NCBI GenBank assembly: GCA_050084515.1
Contig: CM114271.1
Span: 23,684,001 to 23,748,000 of the forward strand
Direction: 5' to 3'
Length of the DNA stretch: 64,000 nt
Source: Blasia pusilla
Taxonomy: Eukaryota
The notes beneath the pieces are model-generated. The model was not told the origin of the DNA. It searched no databases and saw only the letters and a program-made list of their open reading frames with translations. Position 1 is the stretch's first letter; the number at the start of each line of letters is the position of its first letter. Below are positions 4,954 through 63,800 of this stretch, in pieces. A program made the position numbers and the translations under genes.

Positions 4954-4965
4954 CATGAGAAAGAT
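4953..4965 (+). promoter_or_regulatory. Self-priming primer-binding site of E1
   Basis: acatgagaaagat is the exact reverse complement of atctttctcatgt (4779-4791), about 30 nt downstream of the TATA box; no tRNA-type TGG PBS. Confidence 0.75.
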
Positions 4966-11123: not shown

Positions 11124-11409
11124 TCGACTGTCTCACATGGATAGTCAAGGTATGGCTGAGCAGAGACGGATGCGAGTGTCATCCATGCCATCAAGTCCAC
11201 GATTTGGACCATTGCCTACAGGGTCTGTACAAGCATTGGTTGGGGGCGAGACGAGGAGAGATAGGCACCCATGGAATTTCTGGGACGTCGTTCAAGCACA
11301 GAGTACGAAGGCGGCTAGAGTAGCACATGTTCATTTTTTGGATGCGGAGCATGGTGTAGGAAGTCAGAGTGGAGTGGCTGTTGCGGAGGTGCCTAGGGTT
11401 GCTACATAG

Positions 11410-20900: not shown

Positions 20901-20984
20901 TTCTAGGGGTTGGCATATGATGTGTTTGACTCACGTTTGGATGTTGTTCCTCTTTGGAAGGTGGGTTTGTCTCGATGTACTTAG
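17903..20984 (+). pseudogene. E2 RT-RNaseH-integrase-PHD (frameshifted)
   Basis: YIDD at about 18577; RNase H GLGAVL and YSSYEGECLA; integrase HAHEELGH and WSVDFAGP; C-terminal PHD. Confidence 0.85.
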
Positions 20985-21740: not shown

Positions 21741-22374
21741 ATTTGGGTTGAAGAACGCGCGTGCAGAGTTTTAGAGAGTGATGGATAGGATTCTGGCTGG
21801 CTTGGATTTTGTACGATGTTACGTAGATGATATTCTTATCTTCAGTTCCATGGTTGAGGAGCATGAGCGACACTTGGAGGAGGTGTTTCAGCGATTGCAG
21901 TTACATGGACTGAAGTTACATCTAGGCAAGTGCAGATTCTTTAAGGAGCAGATTGAGTACTTGGGATACACCATATACCCAAGTGGGTTAGGCGTTCAGA
22001 AGACGAAGGTAGAGGCTATTGCGCAGATTCCACGCCCTACAGATGTGAGTCGAGTCTGAGCATTTCTTGGACTGGCGAACTTCTATCGACGGTATGTCAA
22101 GGGTTTTAGTGCGATCGCAAAGTCTTCGACCTTGTTGACGAGACTTGACCAGGTTTGGTTGTGGGGAGATGATCAAGAGCGAGCATTTTAGGAGCTCAAG
22201 GATAGGTTGACGTCCTCACCCATTTTACAAAGACCGGTTAGGGGTCGCCCATTCCATTTACATACGGATTGGAGCATGTTGGGTCTAGGAGCAGTGCTTA
22301 CTCAGAGGGATGACAAGGAGAGGGAGTTTGTTGTGGCTTACATGAGCCAATCAAACAACATTGCAGAGGCAAAG
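21741..22374 (+). pseudogene. E1 RT C-terminal part and RNase H start
   Basis: FGLKNA, CYVDDILIFS, KCRFF..IEYLG, FLGLANFYRRYV, HTDWSMLGLGAVL. Confidence 0.88.
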
Positions 22375-27479: not shown

Positions 27480-27484
27480 CGAAG

Positions 27485-28584
27485 TACATCTCCTACGAGG
27501 GAGAGTGCTTGGCTGCAGTGTGGGCCGTGGCACATTTCAGGTGCTATTTATTCGGCAACCCTTTCACACTTATTAGTGATCATCAGCCGTTGAGGTGGTT
27601 GATGGAGTCCGACAAGCTTACGGGAAAGCTTGCCAGGTGGGCTCTATTACTACAGGAGTATGAGTTTGAGGTGTTTCATAGGCCAGGTCGGTTGAACCAG
27701 GATGCGGATGGGTTGAGTCGTAACCCATGTCCGAGTCAGAGAGACGACACACGAGCTTGATGGCACGGAGAGAGTGATGAGGAGATGGTGGCCGGTTGGC
27801 ATGCATCTGCCTATCTTTGTTGGTTGATTATGGCAAGTCAGCCATAGGTGATGACTCTAGTGGTGGGGTTGGATGATGAGTCTTTCGATCCAAAGTTTAG
27901 TGAGGAGGCAACAGGTGGTTGTGATATCCATGACGACGTGGAGGTTGTGGAGTTCTTGCGCACTGGCGTCATAGCGCGTACAGTGAGTGTTAGGGAGCGA
28001 GATTGGATCCTACAGAGAGCCAGGAGGTTCAAGTGGGAGGGGACTCACATTTTGCGGGTATGGGGAGATGGTAGGATACGAGTGGTACCTCATTCTTCCC
28101 AGCGAGCATATGTAGTGCGACATGCCCATGAGGAGTTGGGACATTTTGGAGTAAAGCGTACTTACAGCTTACTCAAGGTTCAGTATTGGTGGCGCGGCAT
28201 GCATACTGGGGTACAACAGTTTGTGGCCAGATGTATGGTATGGCGGCACCCACAACGCTAGATGTCACTGCATGGCACACAATCCTACGTGTGCACGAGG
28301 TATTATTGACCGGAGTCCTCATGTTGGAGGGACGGGATGGTATGGTTTGGAAGGATTATGTGCGCAATTGTGCACCATGTCATCTTTCGAACGTAGATGG
28401 GACGGTGGATCCGAGCTTGGTAGTGGTACCTGCAAGCTTGAGGTGTATGTTGTACGGATCTGCGAGGGGTGCAGCCACCATGTTGGTATGTGTTGGTTGT
28501 TCTCGAGGGTGGCATATGTCATGTCTGACCCCCCCTCTTGATGTGGTTCCCACGGGATGATGGATGTGTCCGAGATGTGTATAG
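27485..28584 (+). pseudogene. E1 RNase H end, integrase zinc finger and PHD; integrase catalytic core deleted
   Basis: YEGECLAAVWAVAHFR, SDHQPL, ADGLSR, HAHEELGH..CMV, then joined directly to APTTLDV..PHD. Confidence 0.82.
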
Positions 28585-28661: not shown

Positions 28662-29418
28662 TTGTGTGATCTCCATGTATATGTATGAGTTGATTTTTGT
28701 ACATGTGTAGATCGACCCATGTGTGGGGAAGATCGGTGTTCTGTGGTGTAGATGTGACCAACGATGTATGTTGTGTAGCGATATGTATGCGCACGAGAAC
28801 TATCACATCTGAGTAGCCGATAGGCCGAGATCTATCGTGGATAGGGCGTAGGAGCCAACGGACTATCTTGAGTGTAACTTTGTCCCACGGTGTTGGATGA
28901 GGTTGAGGATAGGTCCAATGTGTCAGGAACGTTGTTTCTGCTAACTTTCATGTTGAGGTCTTTTACAACCGGGTGACTTGTTGACCACGTCACCCGCCCC
29001 TGGTAACCTGTGCGTGCAAGTTACCAACGGGAGGGCTATTTTTAGGGGAAGATCCTTTTGGCTCTTCCCAACCCTATTTAAGAGAGGAAGGTGGCTTTCC
29101 TAGGCCATCTTTCTCATGTTAGGCCGTTGGAGCACCTCCCTTGTATGTGTGTGAGATAGGACTAGGGTGCTAGCGTCCGGATTCTTTGATAGCACAGGTT
29201 GGACGAGGCTCGATATGTCGATGTAGATTGAGGAGTGGAGTTTTAGGCCGGGTGTGCCATTTTTACTACTCTTTATTTTTATTGTGTGATCTCCATGTAT
29301 ATGTATGAGTTGATTTTTGTACATATGTGGATCGACCCATGTGTGGGGAAGATCGATGTTGTGTGGTGTAGATGTGACCAGCGATGTATGTTGTGTAGCA
29401 ATATGTATGCGCACGACA
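28662..29418 (+). repeat. E1 3' terminal repeat block A1-B2-A2
   Basis: A (137 bp) at 28662-28798 and 29282-29418 flanks B2 28801-29281, which repeats 4473-4953. Confidence 0.9.
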
Positions 29419-32400
29419 TAGTTTTCATGTGTGAACATTTTTGCAAAACACGAGTTCTCATGAGTGTATACATAAGGTTTACAACTTTGTGAGTCATTTA
29501 GTTCTCGTGTATACACACGAGAACTTGTGTATGCTTCTTAACCCTATGATCTTATTTTTTATTTTAATGTAATTTTGTTGTATATAGAAAAATTGGCACC
29601 AACTCTATTTACTTGGAGAATTATTCTACAATCACCAATGCATATGTAACTTATATCATTATCAACATGAGGCCAAGGTTAAGGAATGTAAAACACTCTA
29701 TGCATGTGTATTTTTTCTTCAAATGCCAAACTTCTTGGAAATGACTATTTCATATTTTTTCAGTGTTAATTTTTTTTAATTACACGGGCTAGTATAGAAG
29801 TAAGATTATTTTTTTACGAAAACAAAATTTGAAAGTCAAAACTCTTATACATTATCCAAACCTTATGATCAATAATAAATAGAATTTTAAGAGGGGAAGG
29901 GGATTGCGTGATGGTGGTACTCTATCACACAATGAACATAAATAAAGAGTATTGTATATTTGTCACTTGATACATGTACCCTTTGGGGACCATGAAATTC
30001 ATCAAATATATTTGCTTCATTGAACCAAAATCTCCAAGATAAAGCATAAAAAATGATTCCTTGGATATTCATTGTGGATAATTTTTCTTGGTCGAAAAGT
30101 AATTTGGAAATAATTTTCAAGTGAAGGGTTTAGGTTTGACCAAGCTTGTGTTTCATCGTAATTAGCATGGGACAACAGTCTTGTAATCCTTCAAGTTTCT
30201 TGTTTTAACATGATTCCCTCATGTCTAGCTCCATATGTTGCCCCTTATCTATCTTGGACAATATAACAACTTCTATTCACAAAATAATTCTCTTAGTTCA
30301 AATTTATAAAGTTTAAAATGAAAATCATCCTTGTTCCAATGAGGTGAAAGTATCAAAAGGCAGAAATAAAAATATCATACAATCTTGAAAAAAAACTATG
30401 CTTTTGGCAACATTTGTCCAAACTAATCATAAAGTATGGGGGAAAGATATTTTGATGAGTTAATTTAATAATTTAACTTAAAACATAAAGAAATAGGGAA
30501 GTTTGCGGTTAATCTTTCCTCATATGATTCCATTTTTTCTAATTTTAGTAAAAATTAATCAAGTGTGTTTTCTATATGATAGTTTTAGTTAGTTGAATGT
30601 GAAATGATCTGAATAAATTTAGGCATAATAGAAAAATTTATTGGTCATTTTTACATGTTTATTTACATTTTGAGGAGAGCCCATAATCTTTATTTTAGCA
30701 GAATAATAAAATATTATTCTTGAATTAAAATTTGATCTTTCTAATTCTTTGAAAACTCTTTTTGTGAACTCTTTTTTCTTATTTTGATTTGATTTTCCTA
30801 TGAATATTGAGGAGGAGGAAAATTTCATAGAAAATCCAAGAGAAAATTCCAAACAAGAAGGGATGGAGAGGAAAAATAATTCAAAATCTATTTTATTATT
30901 GGAAAGTACCCCTTCATTTTGCAACTCCTCTCTTTTTGACACTTCATACTTTCAACCGATAGGATTGCTCGTCTTTTGAGCCAATAGAATGGTTCAAAAC
31001 TCATTTAAAGTGAGACTTGCGAATTTGGAGAGTTACTCATGGGAGGTAATTTAAAGCCCTGCATCGCATGGGCCTAGACTCATATAAGCTATGCCATGTT
31101 AGTTGTAGAGAGTCGAGAGTATATGTCCAATGTATCTCAAGACGTTGGGTATTGACATCGTAGGTTGAGAGTGATGTACTAAGGAGAATGGTAACCCATG
31201 TTGTGGTAGTACGTTGTACGAACATGACAACAACTAAAAATGAATCTATGGCACCCTTTTCTAATTCTAAAAAAGGAAAGGAAATTTTTTGATAAAAAAT
31301 TAACAAAGAAAATTGGACTGAAGGAGATGAAAAGATTTTGGGAAGAAATAATCAATAAATCTTTTTGGGGGGGATTTTTGATACAATAGATATCTCCTAA
31401 GAGCTAACCCTAGAAAACTAAGACCCCTTTATTGATATACTTCTAAGAGCTAACAATATCTTTATTATTAGGAGAGGATTGCATTCCACTTTTCAGTGCT
31501 CTTGGAGCATGAAATGTTCCATGCTTAGTACAAATTTAGTTTTCTTTCATAAGGATATATTCCCATGATAATATGGCCATGGTTGCATCGCCTCCTTGTT
31601 TCGACATTCAAAACATGTTTTACTTATGTTTTCATCCAGATTCTATTGTAATAACTCATTTCGATGTCACTTCAATCTTTATAACTATATATTTTTCACT
31701 TCAAGGGCTATCCTTTGATGCGCGTGGCCTAAAACTTAGAGTGTATTAGGATCCAAAGATAGTGCTTGGTCCTTCATTTAAACTTTAATCTCCACAATCA
31801 AGATCCATCTGCTCCATTCTTTGTGAGTAAAAAATTGCTAGAAATTTCCAAAGGAAGCCACTCTAAGTAATTACGTGTCCTTCATAATGCCTTAGAGGTG
31901 TGTCTAGATTGAATTATCTCCACTAGTTTGAATGTTCAAATCTATATTATTAGTGGAGAGTACCCTTTTAATTTTGCAAACTCATATCATCTTGACACTT
32001 GGCACTTTTAGCCAATAGGATCATTCGTCTTTTGAGCCAATAAGTTTGTTTACAATTAATTTAAAATGATATTTGAAAATTTGAGAATTAATATGAAAGG
32101 TAATTTAAACTTGTGCATAGCACATGCTTACACTAATACCCTCTGTATTCATGAATGAGGAGGATATAAAATCCTATTTATGTTTGAAGCGAAGAATTAT
32201 AGAAATACATCAAAAAATAAGGACTAACTCCATGAATCATGTGATCTTGGCCATAGCCATGAAAAGATCATCAATGCAGGCTTCATAAATGCATCACCAA
32301 TTTTGCTTATAATCCAAGACAAAATTTTTGAAGTCATGAAGAAAAACTTTCCACAAATTTGGGCAGTCGAAATTAAATTGCACATGCCCATGGGAGCTAC

Positions 32401-46459: not shown

Positions 46460-47522
46460 CTAGTAAGGTGAATAAAAAAGGGTTTGAATATTTTTTGTTA
46501 GTGTATAGTCTATGAAAGTGTTAAATTTTTTTCTTATTGTTTATAGTATGTGAAACATTTTCTTGTTATCCAATTGTGAATGTTTTTTTGGGCCAATTAT
46601 CATGTGCCAAACAGAATGGTGTTTACAAATAAAAAAGCACTCTTCAAAAAAAATCTAGATTTTAAAATAAACTAGTAAGGTGTCCGTGCGATGCCCAGAA
46701 AATAAAAAAGTGTTTGAAGAGTTAGTGTATACTCCGTGAAGGGAAGAGATAAATGATGCTGAACATAAATTCAAAATTTTTTTCTTGCTGCCCGTAGTAT
46801 GTGAAACATTTTATCGTTGCCCAGTTGTCACGTGTCAAGGAGAGAGGTGTTTGCAAATCAAGAAGGCACTCTCCCATAATAATATAGATAAGGTGCACAT
46901 GCCATGCAAGGGAAATAAAAAGTGTTTGAAGAGCTAGTGTATAGCTCGTGGAAAGAAAAAAAAATTACACATAAATTCAAAATTTTTTCTTGCTGCCCAT
47001 AACATGTGAAACATTTTCTTGTTGCCTAGTTGCCACGTGTCAAGCAGAGAGGTGTTTGCAAATCAAGAAGGTACTCTCCCATAATAATATATAAATAAGA
47101 TGCTCGTGCGATGCACGGGAAATAAAAAAGTGTTTGAAGAGCTAGTGTATAGCCCGTGAAGGGAAAAGATTAATAATATTGCACATAAATCTAAAAAATG
47201 TTTCTTGCTGCCCAAAACATGTGTAACATTTCTTGTTGCCCAGTTGTCATGTGTCAAGCAGAGAGGCGTTTGCAAATCAAGAAGGCACTCTCCCATAATA
47301 ATATAGAAAAGGTGCTTGTGTGATGCACGGGAAAAAGAAGAAGTTTGAAGAGCTAGTATATAGCCCGTGAAGGGAAAAGATTAATGATATTGCACATAAA
47401 TTCAAATTTTTTTTCTTGTTGCCCATTACATGTGAAACATTTTCTTGCTGCCCAATTGCCACGTGTCAAGTAGAGAGGTGTTCGCAAATCAAGAAGGCAC
47501 TCTCCCATAATAATATAGATAA
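46460..47522. repeat. Tandem repeat, about 210-bp unit, 4 well-conserved copies plus 1 diverged
   Basis: Recurring aaataaaaaagtgtttgaagagctagtgtata, tgtgaaacattttcttgttgcc and gcaaatcaagaaggcactctcccataataatata at about 210-bp spacing. Confidence 0.85.
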
Positions 47523-50500
47523 AAATCATATAATTACGAGAATACCAGATGTGGCCTTTAATGAGGATAGAAGCCCAGTATAGCTAGTCAAGTGTGAGCC
47601 TTAGGCCATAGCAAGTTTTATGGCAAAAGTTGTTCTACGAGTTGTTTTAGGGCAAAGGTTGACCTATTCTATAAGCTCTTCCATCCCATATGGTCATTGT
47701 AAATATGGGCCCCAAAAGTAGTGGGTATATGAATGGATGGTTGTCCTTGAGCCCTCCACATAACATCAAAGCTTCCATTTTCAACAAAAAGATGTTGGTT
47801 TGGTAGCAATTGACATTTTCGTGTTGCTATCAACCCTTTGCCTCGCATCGTAGCGGCTTTCGATGGGTTCCATCATATAAGGCCCTTGGGGGGATTGTAA
47901 ACCCAAGCTGATCTTGTGCCCAGGGGTCCGAGGAAATTTCTTTTTCATGAGAATTGGTACATTTCTGGACAATACAAAAGAGAACGGTAAATTTTAGAAA
48001 TTTCTTGATTCCAAGCGGCTATTTGGATACAAATACAAAGGAGAGTTCGAGTATTATGTCTGTTTTTGGCCGGTGATTGAAAAATTGATTCGGCAATTTT
48101 AAAATTCTTCCGGCTAGCTCAACATGTAATCCCGATTCTCCCCGTAAATTTCTCATGCCCATCTTTTTGCATCTTATAGTAAGTTATGATCATGAAATAC
48201 TTGCTTATGCAAAAATGATTAATTTTGTGCTCATGCCATGTGCCGCACGAATAGAACCCTCTCAAGCTTACAAAAATTGATAAATCTATGTTATAATTGG
48301 GGCCCTCACATGCACGATAAGAAAAATAGTAAAAAGTTTGCAATTTTGTCCCTTATGCACAGTTGATATTTTGAGAAGGGAAAAAATTTGAATGGAAGAA
48401 GGAAATGCTTTCACTAATTAAGATTAACTAATGATTTGATTAGTAGGCGTTATGTTGGTGGGAGAAGTGAGTGGAGGGGGAGGAGTAGATATTGTTCAAA
48501 CTTTTATGGAAGGATAGAATTATTGAGGGGAGTGGGGTATTATTTAAATTTTGATTCAAGAGTGGATTTATTTAAAAGAGTGGAATGTTATTAATCCTTT
48601 AATATTTAAGGAAATAGAAATTATGCTTGAAGGATGGGGACATGCGAAGGGTGTTTCACGGGTGCATTGACGGGACGTGGGGACAAGTTGGCAGGGGTGC
48701 ACAAAGTGGTCGGGACTTGGCAAGTTGGCAGAGGACGCGAGATGCGTGAAAAATGCTTAGACAAGTGTACAAACACCAACTTTGTTTGGATGAAACCTTG
48801 AACACGTATGGCGTTGTTGGAGAGTTTTAAATTCCCTAACCCTTGGTCTAATGCCCAATGCACACAAAAAATTCTTATTAAAAATTTCCCGATTTTGAAA
48901 ATAAGAATAAATAAGAGGAGAAAATCTTTGGCCCAAAAAGAATCTAAATTTATTTTAAAATAAAATTGATATGGCATCCATAGTTTACATTCAACGGTTA
49001 GTAAAATGGAAAAATACTTATATTCCAAAAAACTACAACATAATTTACTAAATTTTCATTTAGCATATGTTTAAGAACGCTACAAATAAAACTTCATCTT
49101 AAGAAAGTTTGAAAGACACTTTGCATGAATTAATTTTGAGAATCGCATTCAAAAAATCTTGTATTTTAAGTTTAACGTGTTTAGGGTTAGGATTATTCTA
49201 ACCAATTTTAAATTCCAAAGTACATGGTTAATTTTGGATTTTGGAAATAAACACATGGTGTCCATAGAAAATTTTCAATTAAATTTTCTTAACTCTTTAA
49301 TAATAATCATAAAAATAAAGATAATATTTTAATTTCCCAAAAATTCAAGAAAAATTATCATATTCAAAAATTATAATTCTATAATATTAAAAAATATAAA
49401 TAAGAAAATAAGAAAATGGTAAAGTTTTAATAAAAAAATTGGACTAATTTTAGGATTCTTGAAGACAAAACTAACAAGGACTAGGAGGGAGATTTTATCA
49501 AAATCTTGAATTTCAGAATTTAGGAAAAAATAAAAACTTCTACAATTTTTTGGGAATGGCTCTATTAGCATTTTGAAGGCACACATAAGGAATTTTATTG
49601 CATGCGTGAGCTCTTAAGGAAGCACTAGTCTAATGGCTCCGACTAATTCACCAAATGGGGGGGAGGATGGCCCCCCCACACACACATATTGTCATGACCA
49701 TACGGATTATGTCGTAGAGTATAGTGTGCTAGTAGAGGACATTCCTTATGTAGGACCGTAGTGGCTTGGTAGAGATGCGGTTCCATACATAGGGTTGGGG
49801 TTACTCGGTTGGGGTGAGTTTCCCAGAGGGGCCCACTCTTAGGTTGGAGGATATAAGGTGGAGTGCACTCAAAGAAACGTCGAGTTCTTTGAGTTGAGCC
49901 TGCTATGCGTTGGGAGTTAGCCTTGGTAGTGAGTAGAGCTCTTGGTTATGGTGTTTCCAAGCTTCGACCTGGATTCTCCCCATCGTGGAGTGGGTTTGGC
50001 TCGATTGTATGTGATTATAAACGTGTTTTATGACATGAGGTCTTTCACGGATTTCACTCAAAGAACTGGAGTAGATCGATGGTAGCCGATTGTAGATCAA
50101 TGGGGATCTGGTTAGGGCTGATTGTGTACTCAGCCGTGGATGTTCGTGGCTTGTGGCCTATGTTGGAGGTGTGAATCTGGTGCGCGGTTGGTTGGGAAAG
50201 AAGCGCCTTTTGAGAGCTTTCCAACGCGCTGTAGATCGCGGATTTCGTCAAGAGAGTTGGAAGTTATCAAGCATTGAAGATTCGGTCGTGTTCGGCCGCT
50301 TTTTCGATGTGGAGAGCTTGGAGTGCGGAAGGCTGTGTTGAAGTTCATCCAGATCGGGTGAGAGGTTCTGTTGCTACTGTATTGTGATCTCCGTGAATCT
50401 ATATCGCTTTCGAGTGTGTGGAGCGTTGCGGATTTCTGCGTGCATGAAACTTGGCGGAAGCGCTGTCGGATTTGCGATTCTGGACAACAAGTTTGTTTGA

Positions 50501-51523
50501 TTTTTAGCTCAGAGTACAGAGCTCGGTTGTAGCTGATTTTTTGTGGAGGGATAGCTATGGTGGTCAATAGATATACGTGACCGAAACAGATTTGATTTCG
50601 GTCACGTATTTGTGAAGTAATTTCTGATCGAAATTTCGCGGACTAGCTCGAGGTCTGGCTATGGTGGAGAGCGGATCGGAGGGGCTAGTTGGTTGGTGAC
50701 TCGTTCATTTTTGGAGACGCCTATCCCATTGGGGGCGCCCTGGTTGGACCTTTCTCCATAGCAAAGCATGGCGAAGCGTGGCGAACGGGGCATGTCTCGA
50801 GCATTTCTCGGCGTTTTGAGGCTTCGAGGCAACTCGTGGTAGCTCGGGACGAGTGGGCGTGAGAGGCGGAGTAAGGAGCAAGGAGCAAGCAAGCAAGCTT
50901 GCTTGCTTGGGCGTGAGGCAATTTTTGCAGGATTTGGGATTTGAGTTTTGCATAATCTGGTCACCATCTTTGGGCTATTTCGCTGGAGGACGCTTAAGCG
51001 CCGAGTTCTTAACTATGCCAATGTGTCTGCATGTTGTAGCTCATTTGGTCTTTGTTCGGAGATGTGTTAGGCGCTTTATGCATCTCAGGTTTTTGGTTGA
51101 TGTACCTCTAGCGCATAGTACGGTGTAGCCTCTCCATGCAGGTGATATTTTCAGGTCTTTGGCGTTACTAGCACGTCATCGACCCTTGGCGGAGTAGCTA
51201 TTGCGTTAGAATTGTGTGGTGGGTTTTGTGGATTCAGAGGGCACCACGTTTGGTGGATTGTGTTACCTTGATTTCCATTTGCGATTGGAGGGTTGTCGTT
51301 GGATTTCTGTGTTTGGATCCCCTCCATCGTGCTTTTGCTTGGCGCCCATTGTTAGGGTTGACGCTGATTTCGAGTAGTGTTACTCCTATGTGCTACCGGT
51401 AGTGAGGTGGAGGGATGACGAGTAGATTGTGGGAGACTTCTTGTGGTGATGACAAGTTAGGTTGCCTACACCCATAGCTAGTAGAGCTAGAATAGTATAG
51501 CGACATCGGCGTCACTTGGTAAT

Positions 51524-54500
51524 TTGGTGGTGGTGCGGCATCGGCGTTGGTCATCACGGAGTGTCGGGTGGTCTGCGGTTGGGGACCGTGGTGCGGATAG
51601 TGGTGGTTTCACACGGAGTGGATTTAGGTATCGGCTACCTTTTCCACTTCCGACGGTTGATGAAGAGGAGGACGAGGGTGTTCCAAACACCGAGTCTTCT
51701 ACGTTGTTATCGAGTGTTGCGGCTCCATTGATTTGGGACATGGACGGTGGATATGGGGTCATGAAGGGCCCACGGACGATACTCGGGTGCAAAGTGGGTA
51801 CCATTGAGTTGGAGGACTTCATGCGGGAGTTTGATACGTGGTGTGATATGTAGATGTTGCGAACGCCACGTTGTTTACACCCTTCTTGGCTTGGAAGGGT
51901 TGTTTCAAAGACTTGGAAGGACCACCCATGGATGATTACCATGAGTTTAGGAAGGACCATGTTTTTGAGATTGAGGCATGGAGACAATATTGGTCTCAGG
52001 CTATGTGTCTATCACCCATGGTGGTATTGGTAGTAGTGCTCCTACTATGCCGGCCGGCCCGGCGAGTGAGGTGCAGGCGAGCGAGGTGGGGTACGAGTGG
52101 AGGAGTGGGGGTACGGTGGAGGTACTAGTGGGGGTACTAGTGGAGGTACTAGTGCCCCACCATCGTTTAGCCGAGTTGCAGAGTTCTTCAAGAGGTTGAA
52201 GAAGAACTATCAAGGAGTGAAGACGGAGAAGTTGAGGAATCTTCAGGACTTTGAGCGAAAAGGCGGTGAGAGTCTTCGTGAGGCATACACACAGCGTATC
52301 GGACGCTTGATTTCATTACCAGGGTGTGGCGAGGATCAGCGATCCGATTTTGGTATGGGATCTTGGGCAGAGATTTGCGCCGTAGGGTAGGGTGCGTGAT
52401 GCTACTCTTATGAGTGATGATTCACCCACATTGACCCATGTGTTTGCTCTATCCGAGAAGATTGAGCTTAACATGGTGAAGGAGAGAGTGGTGACATCCG
52501 CATTCAGTAGGGGATACAACTACTACTTCTCGTGTTCAGCCGCCCACCTCACGATCTCGTAGTAGTGGTGGTGGTAGTAGTAGTGGGAGTCGTGGGGGTA
52601 CACGCGACCTCGATCAAGTCCTAGAGGGACATTTGTGCAGAGACCATTGCCTTCATTTGCTGCCCCTTGTGAAGGACAATCATGTTGGACATGTGGAGGT
52701 GATCATGTTAGGAAGTTTTGTCCCCAAGAGGATGGGAGACGGACTTTGGAGGATGGGCCTCGATCGGCCCCAACTCGGTGTGATCATTGCGGGAGACTAG
52801 GTCATCCTCGAGAGCGTTGCTTTGATCTTCATCCGAGTTGAGATCAGGCCGTGGCCGTGGTGGAGTAGCTCCGAGAGGCCGAGGTGGTAGAGGTGGTAGG
52901 GGTGGTAGAGGTGGACCCGGTGGTTGGAGAGCCTACGGTGGCTACCCCTACCACTACGACAATCACTATGGCTGCCAGATTGAGCTTGATTGGAGTAGAA
53001 GTTGGCTACTATGGGCTGGTATCCAACATAGATCAGGTTCGGGAGCAAGGGCTTCCACCTCTTATGGAGGGGATGATCTCTCTTATATGGCGAGTGCAAA
53101 GGCCTGAGGTTGAGGCATCAGTGCGATTATGAGAGGAGCCACTCGGCGTAGAGCCACGTGGTGCTCTTGTGAGTTGGACCCAGAGGGGTGAGGCGGGAGG
53201 CGAGGCTAGGCTTCCCAGTCATTCTTGTTGTCGAGGTGCTTAGGACTCCATCCATGGTTCCTATCAGCCTATTGAGCCGACATGGGGGACCGAGGCATCT
53301 ACAAGCGTGTAGTAGACACGGATGCAAAGCATCAATGCAAGATTGCGGATGGCAACCGGTGTTGGGATCCCCATTGTTTTCGCCACGGAGCGATGGCTTT
53401 AGGAGTTGACTTAGCTCTGTATTTCAGTTAGCGACCACGTTGTGTGAACGTGGGGATATTCTTGCTACGCGTGTTGAGGTGGATGAGGGTGTTGCGGTGG
53501 AGCGACCCTCTATGTCGAGTAGTATTGAGTACGGTGCTACTTGGCGGCGGCGGCGAAGATGGATGCATTACCCGGCCCGCGCCACCATTGATCGTGAGAG
53601 GCTTACACTGGTGTATGTATGTTGGACAACCGGAGTGGGATCTTCCGATTGGTGAGTCCCTACAGGGCAGGTGTATAGACCAGATAGAGTCTTGTTAGAC
53701 TCGGTGCCCAACCTTGATGTTGGGAAAGGCGGCATGTATTGGTTTGGGTATTCGGAGGTCGAGCTTGAGCCTTGCCCATTCCAGATTCAAACATCACTTG
53801 GAGGAGCCAATGATAGGTCTCAATTCATGACACGGGAGAAGTTTTTCTGTCTGTTGAGACCAGATCATGCGACCGATAGCTCCCGGTTGGGAGTATCTGC
53901 GGTAGTCACATCGGCCGAGTCGTATGATGTACTAGTTGGAGGAGCGATATTGTACCCGATGGGTTTTCAGATGGATTCTTTGGGTCGAGACAAAGATCTT
54001 ATAGACCAGGTTGGATCCGGGATGGACGTATGAGCCAAGTTCTGTGAGATTTATTTGTGGGGCTCGACCAGGAGGGTCTTCCCCAACAAAGATGTTAGCA
54101 TCGTGGGCTGGTTTTAGTGGAGTAGTCACTTGGCCAGGAGACTTTTGGAGGGTAATGTTTACGCTATGGATTCTCCTGCGCATGAGGAGGAAGAGGAGGT
54201 CCCTATTTTTGCAGCAAGTGGCATCCTCATCGTTGGATGTGCAACTTTGGAGTTCAGCGGTGCACTACGGCGGGAGGCGTCGCCTAGTGAGAGGCTTGGT
54301 GTGAGGTGTTATACCTCACGAGGAAGAGGAGGCCCCACGGCGGACTCCTACTTCTGGCTTGATTAGGTTATCCCTTTGGATACTACACCCATTGTATGGC
54401 GTATCCGCCGGAGGGCATTTGTGTGTTAGATCTCTTTGGTGGGATTAGCACTTTGGTTTGGCTGCGATGTTGCAGGCGGTATTCTGTCTTGGAGATACGT

Positions 54501-55613
54501 GTATGTGGAGCGAGATGAGACGGCCCGAGAGAGTCTCATCCCGACATATTGGTCGATTGATGCAGAGGTATCTGAGTTGTTGCCGCCATCGGCTATTCGT
54601 GGGTACCGGCGTGCTTTACCATCACACATTGCATCGTTGGGCGCAGGACCTTGAGAGAATTGGTCCTGTGGATTTGGTGATTCTTTGGATGGCCATGTCG
54701 TGGTCATACACACGTCTTTGGTCGGGTGAGGGATTACATGACCCTAGGTCTCGATTGTTTTGGGAGATGTTACGGGTGTTACGACATCTTCAGGTTCATC
54801 AGGCACGTGCTCTAGCTTACATTCTGGAGAATGTTCCATTGTTGGGTGACACTCGGACCCGGATGATGGCGAGTGTTCATGAGGTGCGCTCTTGGATTGG
54901 ACCAGCGGTGTTGTTGGATGCAGCGCGAGTTGGCTCGCGTGCACATCGTCCACGCTTGTGGTGGACAAACTTGTTGCCTAGGGAGGTTCTACGTCGAGCA
55001 TATGATGCAGTGTAGCGGGATCCTCGCCTTACAGTGGATAGTATCTTGGATACTGGGCAACTTTCCCAAGTGGTGAGGGTTATTGATCGGTCACCCATGG
55101 CAGTGGTGAACCGTGTGGGCCAACCTAGGATGGCACTACCCACATTTGTGAGTTTTCCTCGTCACAAGCCTACCAGGGAAGGTGGTCCGGGGCTTGTATG
55201 GGATTCTCATGTGCGACAGTTGGTGGAGCCTAACGCTGATGAGAGAGAGCGTGCGATGGGATTTGCATTGGTGTGACAAAGCGGTTGCTTCTATTTACGA
55301 GGCTTCACGACGTCATGTGTTGGGTCAGGCCATGGACCTGAATTGTTTGACTTGGATTTTGAGTCTTGGTATGGCCGAGCAGCGTCGACTTCGGACTATG
55401 TCTGTGGGTCTTCCACCCCTTGTAATGAGCTCGATGGCTACCGGGATGGTAGAGGCATCGGCTGGGGGCGAGGAGAGTAGTATTTTGCATCCTTGGAGTA
55501 AATGGGATGTAATGGCTGGGCATGTGGAGTTGGTTGCTCATGCTGGTGGAGGAGTTATTTGCTCAGATGATGGTGTAGCTAAGGGTGTATCATCTTGTGA
55601 GGGGGTTGCGTAG
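51524..55613 (+). pseudogene. E3 Gag-protease-DNMT ORF (frameshifted in this assembly)
   Basis: Gag and two CCHC-type knuckles; PR VLLD; DNMT about 54415-55365 with GWPC at 54687-54698, YILENVP, AHRPRLWWTN, ERERAMGF, LGQAMDL; ends at TAG 55611-55613. Confidence 0.85.
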
Positions 55614-58600
55614 CAGCCAATGGCATCGTCCTCTCCCTCTAGTATGCCAGTGGAGGAGACTTGGGAGCCATTACTTGGGCCCAAGCTTACGGGAGGTGAG
55701 AAACGATGCTTGACACAGTTCCTACGTGCTTATAGGAGTTGTTTTGCCTTTAGCATGAAGGAGTTGGGTTCTCTGGTTGGACCCAGTATACGGATTGATT
55801 TGGCTAGTGATACGCCAATCTTCCGTCGTCCCTATCGATATAGTGATATGGAAAGGGACTTGATTCAGAGTAGGACGTTGGACCTTTTGGAGGCTGGATT
55901 AGTGGAGTTGTCGTATGGAGAGTATGCATCAGCCACTATCATGCCTGCTAAAAAGGATATGCATGGCAACTACACGGATAGGCGGATGTGTGGAGATTAC
56001 CGTCCTATCAATCGGCAAACCAAGGCCGATAGGTATGCCATGCCTACACCTGAGGAGATCTTTGATGTGGTGGGACAGCAAATATTTTCAGTACTTTGGA
56101 TCTTGGCGGGCAGATACCATCAATTGCCGATTCGGGAGAGTGACAAGGCCAAGAAAGATTTTGGGGTGTCAACTCTCATGGCAAGGATTGTTTGTACCAG
56201 TGGAAATTCTTACCCTTTGGGTTGAAGAATGCACCTGCCGAGTTTCAAAGAGTGATGGACAGGATCCTAGCAGGGTTGGATTTTGTTTGGTGTTACATTT
56301 TTGATATCTTGGTGTTCAGTAACACGGTGGAGGAGCATCAGATACATTTGCAGATGGTGTTTGAGCGGTTGAAAGCTCATTGTCTACGTTTGCATCCAGG
56401 AAAGTGTAAGTTCTTCCATGAGGATGTTGAGTACTTGGGTCATGTGATCTATCCAGGTGGTTTGGGAGTTCAGCAAGCAAAGGTGGAGGCTATTGCACTT
56501 ATTCCGCGTCCGATAGATGTGAGTAGAGTTCGAGCATTCATGGGATTGGCAAACTACTATCGGAGGTATGTGAAGGGATTTAGTGCTATGGCAAAGCCTT
56601 TGAACCAATTGCTGAAATCAGATCAAGAGTGGCATTGGGGAGATGATCAGGAGAGAGCTTTTGTGGAGCTTAAGGCCCAGTTGGTGGCGGCGCCTATCTT
56701 GAGGAGACCTATCAGAGGGCGCCCATTTCAGATTACACTCGATTGGAGTAGTTTGGGACTTGGAGCGGTGTTGACACAACATGATGATGAGCACATGGAG
56801 TTTGTGGTGGCCTATGCAAGTCGTTTGAATAATGCAATGGAGTCGCGCTATAGCTCATATGAGGGAGAGTGCTTGGCAAGAGTGTGGGTGTGGCACACTT
56901 TAGGTGTTACTTGTTTGGCACACAGTTTACCCTTGTTACTGATCACCAGCCGCTCAAGTGGTTGATGGAGTCGGACAAGCTTACAGGGAAGCTTGCACGG
57001 TGGGCTCTTATCTTACGGGAGTATGACTTCCAGGTGGTACATAGACCTGGAGTTGCCAACCTTGATCTTTGATGGGTTGAGTAGGAATCCATGTACTAGC
57101 CAAGAGGATACAATCGGGGCTAGATGGCATGGCGAGGTTGATGAGGAGATGGTGCCAGGTTGGCATGCATCCGCCTTTTTATGTTGGTTAGGGGTGGACT
57201 CTAGTATGGAGGACCACATAATATCTTACTCTAGTCGAGGGTAGATGGCCGGCCTTGAGATCCTAAGGTTGGAGATGGTGGTACGGATCAGCGTGATATT
57301 CATGATGATGCGTTGGTGTTGGAGTTCCTACTGACCAAGAGGGTGCCAGGCATAGTGAGTGCCAAGGAGCGAGACCGTGTTCTTCAACGTGCTAAGAGGT
57401 ATCGATTGAGGGAACACATATTCTCGCGTGTGGGAGGATGGTAGAGTACGAGTAGTGCCACATTTGGCTCAGAGAGAGCGCATTGTGCGACATGCCCATG
57501 AGGAGTTGGGACATTTTGGGGTAAAGCGTACGTATAGCTTACTCCTTGGCCAATATTGGTGGCGTGGCATGCATACTCAGTGCAGCTGATTGGTGTCACG
57601 TTGTATGGTTTGTGACCGGGTGAGGGCATCATTTAATGCCCCTACACCACAATTACACCCCTTGCCTATTATGGGGTTGGGTTACCGTTGGAGTGTGGAC
57701 TTTGCGGGACCGTTACCGTTGGTATGCGACATCATCGATATGTGTTGGTGATGGTGGAGCACTTCTCCAAGTGGATTGAGTTGGTGGCATTACCGGACAA
57801 GGCAAGTGAGGAACGGCGTATGCGTTTGGATAGAGTGCTTAGTCATTTTGGTGCACCGGTGAAGTCTTGACCGACCAGTCTGAGTTTCAGTGGTGAGTTT
57901 CAGGTCTTGTGTGACAAGGCGTTGATTGATCATCGGACCACGTCTCGAGATCATCCAGAGGCGGATGGTTTGGCTGAGCGTGTGGTTCAGACGGTGAAGA
58001 GGGCATTGCGCAAGTATGGCCTACAAAAGGGGCATCTTGGAGATTGGGATATTCAGTTGCCATGGTTAGCCATGGGGTATAGGTTCAGTCGCCAAGCATC
58101 CTTGGCTTCCTTCTCACCTTATTTTCTGTTATACGGCCGAGATCCAGACTTGCCAGCAGCAATTCGTCGGGAGTCTAGTGAGGTGGTGAACCTTGATGAC
58201 CCAGAGATGTGGATGAGGGTGTGTTCTCAGCGGGCGGAGCTCTTTCGGAGAGTTATGCCAACAACCTTTGAGAATCTTGCCATTGCTCAACATAGGGATA
58301 CGTTGCGGTATGCAACCATTCGGGGTGGAGGTTATCGACCATCGATTCGTAGGTTCCATGTGGGGGACTATGTCTATTTGCAGCAGATTGCACCGACAAC
58401 GTTGGATGTGATGGCAGGCCGCACTATTTTACGAGTGCGTGAGGTGTTAGCTTCTGGAGTTCTCATGTTGGAGGGTCGTGATGGAGTTGTTTGGAAGGAC
58501 CATGTGCGTAATTGTGCGCCATGTCATCTTCCAAATGTGGATGGTACTGTTGACCCAAGCTTAGCCATGATACGTGCTAGCTTGAGGTGCATGTTGTGTG

Positions 58601-58728
58601 GGTCTGCTGGTAACGCAGCCCGTATGTTGGTGTGTGATCGGTGTTCTAGGGGTTGGCACATGATGTGTTTGACTCCACGTTTGGATGTTGTTCCTATTGG
58701 AAGGTGGGTTTGTCCTCGATGTACTTAG
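55614..58728 (+). pseudogene. E3 RT-RNaseH-integrase-PHD
   Basis: RMCGDYRPIN, PFGLKNAPAEFQ, YIFD (YIDD in E2), RNase H, HHCC finger, WSVDFAGP, ADGLAERVVQTVK, PHD 58588-58722, stop 58726-58728. Confidence 0.88.
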
Positions 58729-58899
58729 GAGAGGTAGATGACTTGATCTTTGCATGATATGGATTACAGATGTGCGACTAACGATGGGGCAACCTAGCAC
58801 CCGGCCTTCTGATTCGAGCACCCAAGAAGGTGTATAGCATGTAGTAGATGTATAGGGCTACCTGGGAGTTAGAGGACCTAACCGCCGATTAGGGGGCGA

Positions 58900-59478
58900 G
58901 TTGTGGTACACTTGCGTTTGTGGATACTCTCGTCTATGTTATGTACGTATGTGAGTATGGTATGTCAACGATGTATGTTGTATGACGATGTGGATTCGCA
59001 CGACAGCTGTCATGACCATACGGATTATGTCGTAGAGTATAGTGTGCTAGTAGAGGACATTCCTTATGTAGGACCGTAGTGGCTTGGTAGAGATGCGGTT
59101 CCATACATAGGGTTGGGGTTACTAGTTGGGGTGAGTTTCCCAGTAGGGCCCGCTCTTAGGTTGGAGGATATAAGGTGGAGTGCACTCAAAGAACAGTCAG
59201 TTCTTTGAGTTGAGCCTGTTGCGTTGGGAGTTAGCCTTGGTAGTGAGTAGAGCTCTTGGCTATGGTGTTTCCCGCAAGCTTCGACCTGGATTCTCCCATC
59301 GTGGAGTGGGTTTGGCTCGATTGTATGTGATTATAAACGTGTTTTATGACAGTAGGTCTTTCACGGATTTCAGTTGTGGTACACTTGCGTTTGTGGATAC
59401 TCTCGTCTATGTTATGTACGTATGCGAGTATGGTATGTCAGCGATGTATGTTGTATGACGATGTGGATTCGCACGACA
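58900..59478 (+). repeat. E3 3' terminal repeat block A1-B2-A2
   Basis: A (106 bp) at 58900-59005 and 59373-59478; B2 59008-59372 repeats 49690-50056. Confidence 0.93.
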
Positions 59479-60880
59479 ATATCCTTCTATAGGACGGACA
59501 TAAGTTCATGGACATGTCCGCGGATACATGTTTTATCCATATGCAACCTTGATATTCTATATCTTGAATCAGTTGAAAATGTTGGATTTCTAACTTGATG
59601 TTTTCCATAAAGACTAGTAATTTGGATTCCATTTGATGCACTAGATTAGATGGGCGGAAATAAAAATTGGTAGCTAAAGTACTTTATGAAATTCATTGGG
59701 TATTGTTATTAGATAGCTTTGACCATGGAGGTGTGATAAAAAAGATACTTATACTACTTGTGTGCTTATGCACAAATCTGTATCACAATAGAAATTTTAC
59801 TTGAAAGTTTGTTCGTAGGGTTTTTATGGCAAACCCAAAATAAAGCCCTAAACCAAGTCCATGCTTTTGGAGACCAAACATAATTTTGTTGTTTAATATA
59901 TAAGAAACGAATGCAAATAATAATATAGATAAATTTCCAATTTCAAGAATATACTAATTTTTTTCCTTCCCAACCAACCTTGAAGACTAAATTTCTTTTG
60001 CAGAATTTTGTAAAGATGTAATGGAGAGAATAATGGAGGGATACTTAGGGAAATCTGTAAAAATCTAAAAATAAACTCGAGATAAAAAATAACAAACATG
60101 ATGAATATTTTTGTGTTTGCTTCTTATCATTTTCATTCTGTCACCTTCCCGAATGCATGTTACTGCATTCCTTCATTATATTCGAGGTTTATTTTTATGA
60201 TGAAGTGGATTTGGAGGCTTAAGATATTTCAAACATCCAGAATAGATTTAGCCTATAAATTAATTCAATAATGAAACCTATATATTTCTTTTCCTTTTCC
60301 ATTTTCCCCTTTTCTTAGGATCAAGCAAAGCCTGCATGCATGGGAAGCTTGTATTGACCTGTGGATCAGTAATCATATTATTAGCGACTAATTTCGCGCG
60401 ATCATGCTATTTTCGCTCTATTAGCGTAATCTGATCCTCGCCGCCCACGGATCATCGTGGGAAGCCTCGTTCGTTGGCTGCGGACTATGGAAGTGCTGCG
60501 AAAGCGGAGCAGTCACGGAATAGGACGACAGTTCAACTCTCGGGGCCTTCGCCGCGTCCTCATCCTGTCTGAGGACTGTTCATGTCCATCGCCGCTGGAG
60601 CATGTGCGGACGTCGTTGCAGTGGTGGTAGTCGGGAGGATTTGATGGACGAATGGGCGGACTCACTGGTGTACGAGCTGTGAGAATTGGAGGTAGAGAAT
60701 GGCTGATGACTCCGCTGCACTGCGAAGTATTGCACTCCGAATTATAGTGGAAGAGCCGATGTGAAGGCGATTCTCGAGACTGTCACTCGCGCAATTCGGA
60801 AGCGCGATTTCTCGCCGTGTTTCGTGAATTCGATTTCCAGCCTTTGCGGTGACAGTTTATGCACGGTTACGGGAGAAGCT

Positions 60881-63800
60881 ATGGCCGATTTCGAAAGCAG
60901 TGGATATAAAGATGGAGTTTATCATAGTTTGCAACCGCCATTCCCGATGCCCGATGAAACTTACTTGGACTGGGCGACCTTCGTTTTCGGCGGTGATTGG
61001 GGCTCTGATCGCGTGGTTCTAGTCGATGCTCACAGCGGACAGAGTTTGACATTTGGAGAGCTGAAAAGGAGAGTGTACTCTGTGGCTGCGGGCCTCGCCC
61101 AAGTTGGAGTGAAGCAGGGTGATACAGTGTTGCTTGCAGCTCCCAACTCGATCCACTACCCTGTTTTTTTATTTGGAATTATATCCTTAGGAGCTATCGT
61201 CACGACTGCAAATACGACGAACACCGTCATGGAATTCGAGAGGCAGGTTAAGGACTCCAATTCTCGTTTTGCGGTCACAGTTCCGGAGTTGGTGGGGAAA
61301 TTGTCGCAGCTAAAGCTACCCCTGATCTTGATTGATGGTTCTGAACGTAAGGCAGTTACGAATGCTCATCCAATTGCTTACATGTCCCATCTTTTGAAAA
61401 CAGATCCTATCAAGGCTCCAAAAGTAAAAATCAAGCAGACTGATGCTGCAGTCTTGATGTATTCGTCTGGAACAACCGGTCTCAGCAAAGGCGTGCTTCT
61501 CTCTCACAGTAGCTTTATATCTTCAGCACTTCAACGACAAAGCGCGTCTACCGCTGATGCTAACGAGCAAGCTGTTCTCTGTGGTGTAGTTCCCTTCTTT
61601 CATATAATGGGACTGACCGTAGTTTTGGGATACCAAATATGGTCGCGCAATAAAGTAATCGTATTCGCCAGATATGATCTCACGGAGTTGCTTAAGTGTG
61701 TCGAACACTACAAGATAACGATTCTTCCAGTGGTTCCCCCAATTTTGATCGCCCTGACGAAGAGTCCACTCGTGAACGATTATGATGTCAGTTCCATCAA
61801 GGTCATTGTGTTTGGAGCAGCTCCTGCTGGGAAGGAGCTGGTAGTAGAGTGCGCTGAGAGATTCAAAGGCGTTTATCTTATACAGGTGCATACCGACATC
61901 GCTCCTGCAATTACTCACACTGCGTCTTGATTTCTTCTTACACATGGAGAGTTGGCAAACAAACCTACTGGCTGTGAGGGGTCGGTGGACTGGGGCATTT
62001 CATTCTGGCATATGGCTAAGGTCGTTTTGGTCCCGAATCTACGTCTTGGACGATCCAATCCTTGTTGATACCGCATCCACTACTTTTCAGTCGTAATGCT
62101 AATTGGTTAGGCTCATTTGCAGGGCTATGGTTTGACAGAGTCCACTGGCACCGCAACCGTAGTTGATTTGGTTGATTCAGAATATTCGTATGTCAACGGG
62201 TCTTGTGGGAAGTTATGCGGGCGGATTCAAGCCAAGATAGTCGACCTAGACTCTGGGAGGCCGCTGCCCCCCAATCAAAGGGGAGAAATATGGTTGCGTG
62301 GACCGAACATTATGACAGGTGATGCATATGATCTCTGTTGTGGATGTGGTGGGGGTTTTGCATTCCTGAATTGTCACTTGTTTTGTCCTTGGAGGGTAAA
62401 GTGATAGATCTTGCTACTCACCGTAAGTGTTACAATTGAAACTTGGTGATAGTCACTTCGAATTTTGTTTGTCTATTCCGTCCCACTTCAGAATACTTGA
62501 ACAATGCGAAGGCAACAGCAGATACTCTGGATAAGGAAGGTTGGCTGCATACGGGAGACTTAGGCTATTTCGACGAGAGGGGATTTCTGTATATTGCTGA
62601 CAGAATCAAAGAGTTGATAAAGTACAATGCATATCAGGTAAGAACTCTCATTAGCCATTGGAGGACATTCTCCAAAGACTCATTCGCTAATTTTGTGTCA
62701 ACGCAGAAAATCCTACGGCTGATGCGAATGCATCAACAAACAGATGCCTTCTATTGTCTATGAAGACCCAAAGGCCAAAGGACAGCAAGAGCTTGCAAAC
62801 AGCTCAACCTAGACAGTTTCTGAAGAGGGTTTCGTGTGTTTCTTTCTGTCTTATCGGTCGTACTCCTTTTCCTGCAGACTTCGTACTGAATATAGTGCTC
62901 GACTCTCTGACTTGTCATTTTAGTTCTATGATTGATATTCCTACAGCATTCTCTGTCTAGTTTCGCTCAAGGGGAGAGCAGTTGTAGTGATGACATAGTG
63001 GAGTTTCCTCTGTGCAGATCGCTCCTGCAGAGTTGGAGTCTATTCTTCTCTCACATCCCCACGTTTTGGATGCAGCTGTCGTACCGTAAGTGGTCCTTGT
63101 TCTATTCTTTCGAGAAATAGTTGCTTAGATATGCAACTTTGGATACCACTGGCTTATACTAGAAAACAACCATTCAGGAAGATGTTTGAATTTATGGTTG
63201 CTTTCCAGGTTTCCGGATGAGTTGGCGGGAGAGATACCTCTGGCTTTCATAGTGAGGCGTCCGAATCATGCCCTGAATGAGGATACTGCTTTGAAATTTG
63301 TTGCTGAAAGGGTGAGTTTCCTGCAAAGCCTTGTCAATCTGCTTTTTTGGAGAACTTTCCATGCCGTCTATTGCAAATGTTGTACCACCTCACATTCGGT
63401 GGGGTTGGTTTTAGGGAGTGCAAAGGTCATTTGAGAAATATGATACATGAGAAGACCATGTTAAGCTAAAACCTAGTGGCAACTGAATCTTTTTACTGAG
63501 TTGTGCTCCCTTCAAGGTTTAACCAGATCTCTGGCTTATCAAGGTTCAGAGTAGTCAAAGTAAGACCCATTGGGGAGTTCCTTCTTGCATTCTGAGCCAC
63601 GGTCTGATGATTCTTAGGCTAGGATGTGTATGATTTATGTTAATATTCCCGAGTCACAAAACCTTGAAGGTGCGTCATGGCTCCATGCTACAAAAACTTG
63701 AAGGTTCCGAAATTACTACTTGACTTCCTGCATGGTCAAGGACTATGTACTTCCAAACACTGGCAGAGAATTCAAGCGAGTTGTTTCTGTGACATGGACC

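Follow-up and report, generated by a model that had tools for sequence, protein, structure and literature searches.

A 64,000-nt stretch of the Blasia pusilla genome (GenBank assembly GCA_050084515.1, contig CM114271.1, positions 23,684,001 to 23,748,000 of the forward strand; hereafter the window) contains four Ty3/gypsy retrotransposons, E0 to E3, whose inserted copies are circular permutations of the cDNA expected from reverse transcription. With A and B denoting the two parts of the long terminal repeat (LTR), NN a short spacer between them and the vertical bar a direct joint, the expected cDNA reads A-NN-B/internal/A-NN-B, whereas the inserted copy reads B/internal/A-NN-B|A and is flanked by a 4-bp target-site duplication (TSD). 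The ends recognized by the integrase lie back to back inside the LTR made by reverse transcription (CACGACA-NN-TGTCATG), away from the LTR ends. The best explanation of the whole, to which we assign a probability of about 0.6, is that the cDNA integrates in permuted form via this internal att palindrome, with its two termini joined head to tail.

The layout had been predicted from the letters of the window, and the coordinates were confirmed (Table 1): all four elements end in A-NN-B-A, and the three complete ones (E1, E2 and E3) start with B alone. The start of B and the end of A are the insertion boundaries. They carry inverted 7-mers, TGTCATG on the left (TATCATG in E2, TGTCACA in E1) and CACGACA on the right, and are flanked by exact TSDs, those of E3 and E2 checked by script and that of E1 read directly from the sequence. 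When E2 is removed together with one TACC, the host reverse transcriptase (RT) reads GRDFLYQWRFLPFGLKNARAEF in frame, as the original prediction had it. The two copies of B in E3 are 95% identical, those of A 98%. The inner joints were also found as predicted: besides that of E3 they read cacgaca-gc-tatcacg in E0, cacgaga-ac-tatcaca in E1 and, with a 3-nt spacer, CGACA-ATT-TGTCATG in E2. In pol, E0 and E1 are only 70–80% identical to E3, and their B segments have no blastn match to E3 B; three diverged families thus share the layout.

To sample relatives, 24 aligned integrase-PHD sequences served as the query in a scan of metagenome contigs, which gave 80 loci at 48–90% identity. Loci were classed by matches to A and B references from two families, and distinct insertions were counted by their 3' flank. 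Twenty-four loci (17 distinct insertions) end in A-NN-B-A, which rules out both chance and an assembly artefact as the origin of the layout. Another 25 (22 distinct) end directly after the first A, here called the B-internal-A form. Three loci (two distinct) have A-NN-B only: L026 is cut by the contig end, and L075, the same insertion as L077, continues into unrelated sequence. One locus (L019, one distinct insertion) has an internal deletion and keeps B|A, two have a partial A, and 25 show no match to the A/B references, belonging to other families or having their 3' end outside the contig. The insertion in L075 and L077 (at 2284 and 3985, respectively) is the sole copy in which A-NN-B stops exactly at the B terminus; a cDNA end may have been captured without integrase, or the copy may have been rearranged later.

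Each B copy in the loci and the window was further classified by what adjoins it. A-NN stands in front of the 5' B (B followed by the primer-binding site, PBS) in none of 13 distinct copies, so that most copies are not ordinary elements with A+B at both ends. The identical LTRs with TG..CA termini that characterize Ty3/gypsy elements are missing, the 5' end being B only in 13/13 distinct copies. At the other end, A follows A-NN-B in 21 of the 22 distinct copies with a visible 3' end. A 4–5-bp TSD, likewise characteristic of Ty3/gypsy, is exact in nine of 11 elements with both ends visible; besides E1 to E3 these are AAGG (L011), GGTC (L038), ATGT (L045), AAAG (L074), TGTT (L003) and TACA (L005), and an imperfect one is seen in L049 (GCAT/ACAT, 3/4 bases match). 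Three B-internal-A copies have both ends visible (L003, L005 and L056), and all three are plain B-internal-A. The numbers of contigs placed on 49400–59800 from four contig runs (258,999, 94, 436 and 4,333) show only that the copy number of the family is high. At least 20 runs contain part of E3, and among the runs listed none is RNA. A viral contig collection gave 28 pattern matches, with no relatives of the elements among them.

The priming sites point to the LTR that reverse transcription should build. A G-rich polypurine tract (PPT) runs up to the first base of A in every copy, and A2 starts within 0–3 nt of the A1 start after the G run in 22/22 elements tabulated. The sequence right after B1 is complementary to a stretch inside B. 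This complementarity was tested in 12 elements, with 2000 random internal windows per element as the control: nine have an exact complement of 10–17 nt that starts −3 to +2 nt from the end of B, and only 0–3 of the 2000 control windows per element reach 10 nt. (The second element in L046, with 8 nt of complementarity and an invalid control, lies outside this count.) The target inside B is found 27–32 nt after a TATA box (by eye in E2 and E3). By family, the pairing sequences are CTCAAAGAAC..., CATGAGAAAGAT and TCTAGAAAAACT; since the three families have three different sequences, each with its own complement, the two sites covary. A tRNA-type PBS was ruled out, as no TGG directly follows B (by eye). 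We infer from these matches that the PBS is of the self-priming, Tf1-like type, with the complement placed after the TATA box in nine of 12 elements. Because the PPT adjoins A and the primer site adjoins B, reverse transcription should build an LTR of the composition A-NN-B, in agreement with the original assignment of A+B. B would then comprise the promoter (downstream U3), R and U5, and A the upstream part of U3.

Two peculiarities of the primer region were observed. A second PBS-like copy, CTCAAAGAA, lies just upstream of the PBS-complementary stretch in E3 B1 (49865–49895) and likewise in B2 and in E2, and was not seen in E1; it can pair with the adjacent complementary stretch into a hairpin, located where the RNA is inferred to begin. 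In L049 (1663–1680), and likewise in L048 and L053, B1 is separated from the primer site by a 17-nt duplication of the end of B; the B|A joint of this L049 copy is complex as well, the first 5 nt of A being absent from it.

The two joints differ in character. The inner one has CA-NN-TG between the two 7-mers, with a 2-nt spacer, in all 24 A-NN-B-A loci, so that the att-like palindrome first noticed inside the LTR in the window extends to the relatives. Its spacer is GC, GT, AC or AT, which fits GC and its transitions, and AA in L045. Distant families carry perfect or near-perfect palindromes 110–190 nt after the PPT: CGTGACA-GC-TGTCACG (L041), CCCGACA-GC-TGTCGGG (L057) and CACGGCA-GC-TGCCATG (L071 and L080). 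The B|A joint, in contrast, varies between copies from −22 to +2 nt. In the L045-type family B ends in TTC plus three (AAT; five loci), one (six loci), two (one locus) or five (one locus) nucleotides of the primer site, and one joint is complex. The joint of L074 is 2 nt shorter than the end of its own B1, and in that of L008 about 22 nt of B are missing while 2–3 nt of the PPT remain. Joint type does not cluster on the (poorly resolved) tree, with 6 changes against a mean of 6.9 for shuffled labels (P 0.29). Since the PPT border marks the start of A2 and the primer border the end of B2, and DNA strands start at these two points, B|A corresponds to a junction of the right cDNA terminus with the left. 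These data support a joint that is made anew at each insertion by joining of the cDNA termini. Its spectrum is what would be expected from variable removal of the primer followed by end joining, and contrasts with the constant 2-nt spacing of A-NN-B.

We propose the following sequence of events. Transcription would start about 30 nt after the TATA box inside B, and the 5' 10–17 nt of the RNA would fold back onto the site adjoining B and serve as the primer for the minus strand, in the manner of Tf1. With the plus strand starting at the G-rich PPT adjoining A, the full cDNA would be A-NN-B/internal/A-NN-B. Its right and left termini would be joined head to tail, anew for each insertion; the A-NN-B joint, unlike the B|A joint, would be copied from RNA. 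Host end joining is the most likely agent, either producing a 2-LTR circle or closing the termini after the cut, and the explanation leaves open whether joining or cutting comes first. In the upstream LTR, integrase would nick each strand of the 2-nt-spaced palindrome just behind its CA. Nicks placed in this way are offset by 2 bp; by established integrase chemistry, each of the two resulting ends would have a recessed CA-3'OH and a 5' overhang of 2 nt, as the normal 3'-processed substrate for integration does. B-internal-A copies would arise if the CA end of the downstream LTR were used instead (through cuts in both LTRs, or from a one-LTR form) or by a later A × A deletion; a cut in a circular intermediate of reverse transcription, or fast collapse of mirror forms (see below) by B × B recombination, are other conceivable routes. 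Lacking a 3' B, such copies would give no complete RNA. Overall, a circle-forming mechanism is partly supported, the ligated 2-LTR circle itself being a candidate step. Whether the whole green-algal and bryophyte clade with a DDE integrase must join its cDNA ends head to tail and then open the neighbouring CA-NN-TG palindrome with an ordinary integrase is, in our estimate, an even bet.

Several observations speak against this explanation. A ligated circle has two identical sites and predicts a mirror form, B-A-NN-B-internal-A, with the same frequency as the permuted form, yet the mirror form is absent from all 13 distinct 5' ends; this sample is small, with only four informative ends (L003, L005, L056 and the second element in L046), the other nine belonging to copies already known to end in A-NN-B-A. 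B-internal-A is as common as the permuted form (22 versus 17 distinct insertions). It is also not older, the median terminal branches being 0.047 (n = 13) for B-internal-A and 0.049 (n = 15, L077 included) for permuted copies (Mann–Whitney P 0.31, a weak test), with the two forms interspersed on the tree. A second route is therefore needed. L056 lacks a TSD, and in L075/L077 B is followed by unrelated sequence. Primer complementarity is at most 8 nt in L005, L056 and L074 (three of the 12 elements), and that of L049 begins 14 nt farther along, past the short duplication. Every copy examined is broken by stops or frameshifts, the window copies all being full of stops, and the circle, the RNA start, the poly(A) site and enzyme activity are deduced from genomic sequence. 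Thus, of the original proposal that a 2-LTR circle is cut at the internal CA-NN-TG, the joining of termini is borne out by the variable B|A joint, whereas symmetric cutting of a circle is not borne out by the 5' ends (0/13, four informative); the circle model suits the permuted copies but not the 22 distinct B-internal-A insertions.

The B-internal-A form could also be explained if it were only a decay product of the permuted form, made by A1 × A2 recombination. Direct repeats of 107–185 nt that are 290–514 nt apart can recombine, and L003 and L005 have intact TSDs, as they would after such a deletion. However, the interspersion and equal terminal branches just described argue against it, within the weakness of that test, and 22 of 39 distinct copies is a high share for repeats this short. 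We consider decay as the sole source of these copies doubtful.

Rather less probable, in our view, is a scheme with the same internal att site and the same head-to-tail joint that dispenses with the ligated circle. It might work on the upstream LTR, the first to become double-stranded after the second strand transfer: integrase would cut this LTR at its palindrome and keep hold of both new ends, and end joining, at the time of integration or later, would close the free A start and B end. Alternatively, the plus strand, having reached the right terminus, would jump end to end to the completed minus strand, at the 3' end of the latter, and go on to copy A. Such a scheme accounts for the sole use of the TG end of the upstream LTR (A-NN before the 5' B in 0/13 distinct copies) and for the finding that all three A-only copies with both ends visible are B-internal-A. 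We speculate that an asymmetric route of this kind would account for the absent mirror form. The 1–2-nt overlaps at the B|A joint fit end joining and template jumping equally well. On the other hand, this scheme is itself deduced, the sequence gives no order of steps, its asymmetry comes from four informative copies, and mirror copies could also have collapsed to B-internal-A by B × B recombination.

It is improbable that reverse transcription alone makes the permuted linear DNA, with an RNA that runs from B2 into A2 and a B|A joint copied from the parent. A poly(A) site inside A2 is compatible with the data at hand, and the layout is faithfully inherited across families that are about 50% identical in integrase. 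But the A2 start and the B2 end coincide with the PPT border and the primer border, respectively, the starting points of DNA strands; we found no strand-transfer scheme that puts A after B; and the joint type differs between close relatives without clustering, the L074 joint even being 2 nt short of its own B1. Finally, misassembled or rearranged ordinary LTR elements (LTR = B or A+B), or elements of DIRS/PAT/Ngaro type with a tyrosine recombinase, can be dismissed with some confidence: the repeat layout does equal the split direct repeats of PAT and Ngaro as described in PMC4157794, but it recurs in four window copies and 17 distinct copies from independent metagenome assemblies, the TSDs track the B start and the A end, and an rve integrase is present whereas the Phage_integrase domain was not found in the E3 and L038 ORFs scanned or in the Pfam lists of the 120 relatives listed.

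Three further schemes were rejected on paper. An LTR of the form B+A with a truncated 5' copy does not fit, because the PBS adjoins B and the PPT adjoins A. Rolling-circle copying of a one-LTR form was rejected since it would yield B-PBS rather than B|A, as was a second PPT or PBS at the palindrome, which would yield B-internal-A or an LTR consisting of A only.

The elements, all of them dead copies, belong to a streptophyte Ty3/gypsy lineage with the pol order protease, DNMT3-like methyltransferase, RT, RNase H, DDE integrase and PHD finger. The order protease–RT–RNase H–integrase, with an rve integrase, was found in E3 and in L038. In the latter, a better preserved relative, the domains lie in one frame with three stops, in the order gag-asp_proteas (weak), DNA_methylase, RVT_1, RT_RNaseH_2, Integrase_H2C2, rve and PHD. 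The DNMT3-like region lies between protease and RT; Pfam detects it as DNA_methylase (PF00145) in L038 (6593–9133, 2e-09) and L026 (6374–7720, 7e-09), and degenerate copies are present in E1, E2 and E3 (Table 1). A Pfam scan of each E3 open reading frame (ORF) separately did not detect the methyltransferase domain, its region being degenerate. The columns bearing D,D,E are kept across 24 aligned relatives. A chromodomain at the integrase C-terminus, as in chromoviruses, was not found; a PHD finger takes its place. One locus, L076, has a different 3' architecture, with an open frame of >900 nt beyond the PHD finger (10295–11195), and neither a PPT nor the palindrome was seen within 1500 nt.

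The integrase-PHD ORF of E3 has 243 longer relatives at E ≤ 1e-10. Its closest named relatives are from the liverworts Marchantia polymorpha (87%) and Calypogeia fissa, followed at 45–55% by Klebsormidium (54%), Haematococcus, Volvox, Pleodorina, Tetrabaena and Chromochloris. The Pfam domains of the 120 relatives listed are rve, Integrase_H2C2 and PHD, with DNA_methylase in some. A tyrosine recombinase domain (Phage_integrase, PF00589) was found in none of 19 E3 ORFs of at least 100 aa, none of 12 L038 ORFs of at least 90 aa and none of the Pfam lists of these 120 relatives, so that the predicted combination of a DDE integrase with the lack of a tyrosine recombinase holds for this material. 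Families share the layout though they are only about 50% identical in integrase.

Table 1. Parts of the four elements in the window (positions are those of the 64,000-nt stretch).
Feature	Position	Strand	Remark
E3 left TSD	49686–49689	+	ATAT
E3 B1	49690–50056	+	367 nt; starts TGTCATG (integrase end)
E3 B1 TATA-like sequence	49850–49858	+	gatataagg
E3 B1 stretch complementary to primer site	49883–49894	+	
E3 self-priming PBS	50056–50067	+	12 nt complementary to 49883–49894; offset −1; 0/2000 control windows reach 9 nt
E3 DNMT3-like region of pol	54320–55586	+	degenerate; tblastn with L026 ORF (Pfam DNA_methylase), 58–68% identity
E3 RT and RNase H ORF fragment	56144–56965	+	RVT_1 4.5e-21, RT_RNaseH_2 1.8e-22
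E3 integrase and PHD finger	57490–58728	+	HHCC and D,D,E motifs across frameshifts; frames by eye; relatives carry rve, Integrase_H2C2, PHD
E3 C-terminal PHD finger	58588–58722	+	Pfam PHD 2.3e-10
E3 PPT	58887–58898	+	gattagggggcg; adjoins A1
E3 A1	58899–59005	+	107 nt; end CACGACA
E3 internal att palindrome	58999–59014	+	CACGACA-GC-TGTCATG; 2-nt spacer 'gc' at 59006–59007
E3 B2	59008–59372	+	
E3 A2	59372–59478	+	end CACGACA; 1 nt common with B2 end; start base = A1 start base after PPT
E3 right TSD	59479–59482	+	ATAT
E2, whole	12015–21736	+	inserted in RT of E1
E2 TSD	12011–12014 and 21737–21740		TACC
E2 B1	12015–12365	+	
E2 PBS	12365–12379	+	
E2 DNMT3-like region	16614–17875		degenerate
E2 A1	21155–21260	+	
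E2 B2	21264–21630	+	
E2 A2	21630–21736	+	
E1, whole	4473–29418	+	interrupted by E2 and a Copia-like element
E1 TSD	4469–4472 and 29419–29422		TAGT
E1 B1	4473–4953	+	
E1 PBS	4954–4965	+	complementary to 4779–4790, 32 nt after TATATAA at 4747
E1 DNMT3-like region	9059–10123		degenerate
E1 A1	28662–28798	+	followed by spacer 'ac'
E1 B2	28801–29281	+	
E1 A2	29282–29418	+	
E0, 3' part only	1–1768	+	window start cuts element; integrase-PHD, PPT, then repeats
E0 A (first)	995–1123	+	followed by 'gc'
E0 B	1126–1639	+	
E0 A (second)	1640–1768	+	

The Copia-like element within E1 is of the Ty1/copia type (about 22341–27489, minus strand; RVT_2, rve, gag_pre-integrs, zf-CCHC and Pol_BBD), has LTRs of roughly 360 bp (22375–22735 and 27140–27480) and is nested in the RNase H region of E1, which, with E2, thus carries two nested insertions. 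Elsewhere in the window, a direct-repeat array with a spacing of about 210 bp occupies 46666–47590, and a 406-aa open frame with an AMP-binding enzyme domain (60710–61930, plus strand; 9e-57) is the only host-like gene seen. A strong bias of G over C (skew 0.2–0.3) and of T over A marks the Gypsy coding strand at 4001–22000 and 50001–60000 and is absent from the surrounding DNA.

Programs that search for LTR elements expect two equal LTRs bounded by TG..CA, the 3' one preceded by a PPT, with a TSD flanking the whole. They will mis-bound the present clade, setting the LTR equal to B and finding no TSD. If the proposed mechanism is true, an ordinary integrase can act from an internal palindrome, and the LTR–LTR junction, commonly regarded as a dead end, would be a productive intermediate, which bears on the debate about retroviral 2-LTR circles. 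Split direct repeats would then be possible without a tyrosine recombinase. This bears on the origin of DIRS-like elements, for which elements of the present type would plausibly represent an intermediate stage between Gypsy-like ancestors and DIRS, PAT and Ngaro.

The nearest described element is KnitGypsy-Dnmt3 of Klebsormidium nitens, to which the legend of Fig. 4c in de Mendoza et al. (2018; PMC5890265) ascribes a DIRS repeat structure and Gypsy domains. The original prediction knew of no description for Gypsy; on this point it was mistaken, although the legend gives no mechanism, and the accessible text of that article contains no TSD, att site, PBS/PPT assignment or mechanism for the element. 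KnitGypsy-Dnmt3 and the window elements share a Gypsy pol with a DNMT3-type methyltransferase and the repeat order X-coding-Y-X-Y; the host of the former is Klebsormidium, whereas the best named matches of the window ORF are from liverworts. A 2026 preprint names the lineage 'streptophytes (Gypsy-DNMT3)', the part of it available to us containing no discussion of repeats. The window elements are new members of this Gypsy-DNMT3 lineage, whose DIRS-like repeats are already in print. No published mechanism for such elements was found in a literature search that excluded subscription journals, supplements and Repbase. New, as far as the literature searched is concerned, are the internal att palindrome, the TSDs, self-priming, the joint made anew, the B-internal-A form and the missing mirror form.

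The defining feature of PAT, Ngaro and VIPER, all of them elements with a tyrosine recombinase, is their split direct repeats (PMC4157794, in the part consulted). The original view of such repeats as a hallmark of tyrosine-recombinase elements is therefore sound for these three, but does not extend to Gypsy, where KnitGypsy-Dnmt3 had already been noted. PAT, Ngaro, VIPER and TOC1 resemble the window elements in their split repeat order (A1 - B1 A2 B2) and in that no information is lost from a transcript that begins within the first repeat. They differ in encoding a tyrosine recombinase, where the window elements have a DDE integrase, TG..CA ends and 4-bp TSDs. To our knowledge, PAT, Ngaro, VIPER and TOC1 make no TSD.

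Self-priming is predicted for Tcn1 (plant chromoviruses) and Tf1/sushi elements in the text consulted of Neumann et al. (2019; PMC6317226). These elements, like those of the window, have a primer site directly after U5 that is complementary to the start of their own RNA. Tf1/sushi and Tcn1 have canonical LTRs with att ends at the LTR termini and a chromodomain, whereas the window elements carry a PHD finger.

The integrases of prototype foamy virus (PFV) and HIV-1 cleave the palindromic LTR–LTR junction at internal positions, according to the available text of Delelis et al. (2005, 2007; PMC1180852, PMC1905944). As proposed here, a palindrome is cut internally by integrase and 3'-processed ends are released. 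In the viruses the palindrome is the LTR–LTR junction itself and cleavage, a side route, restores the normal linear DNA, whereas in the window elements the palindrome lies inside the LTR with a 2-nt spacer and its use permutes the element. The spacer of the viral junction palindrome is 4 nt.

Gypsy-7a_cRei of Chlamydomonas reinhardtii has a PHD finger and 'LTR subparts', a term used in a figure legend; the final 8 bp of its right LTR are missing from the left one (Craig et al., 2022; PMC9940879, as far as consulted). The 8-bp difference resembles a very short A, a lead drawn from the published description and not from a comparison of sequences. Unlike the dead copies in the window, the element is reported in that article as active in laboratory strains, with 86 new insertions. 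This active PHD-finger Gypsy element may share the design described here; if so, the question can be tested at the bench.

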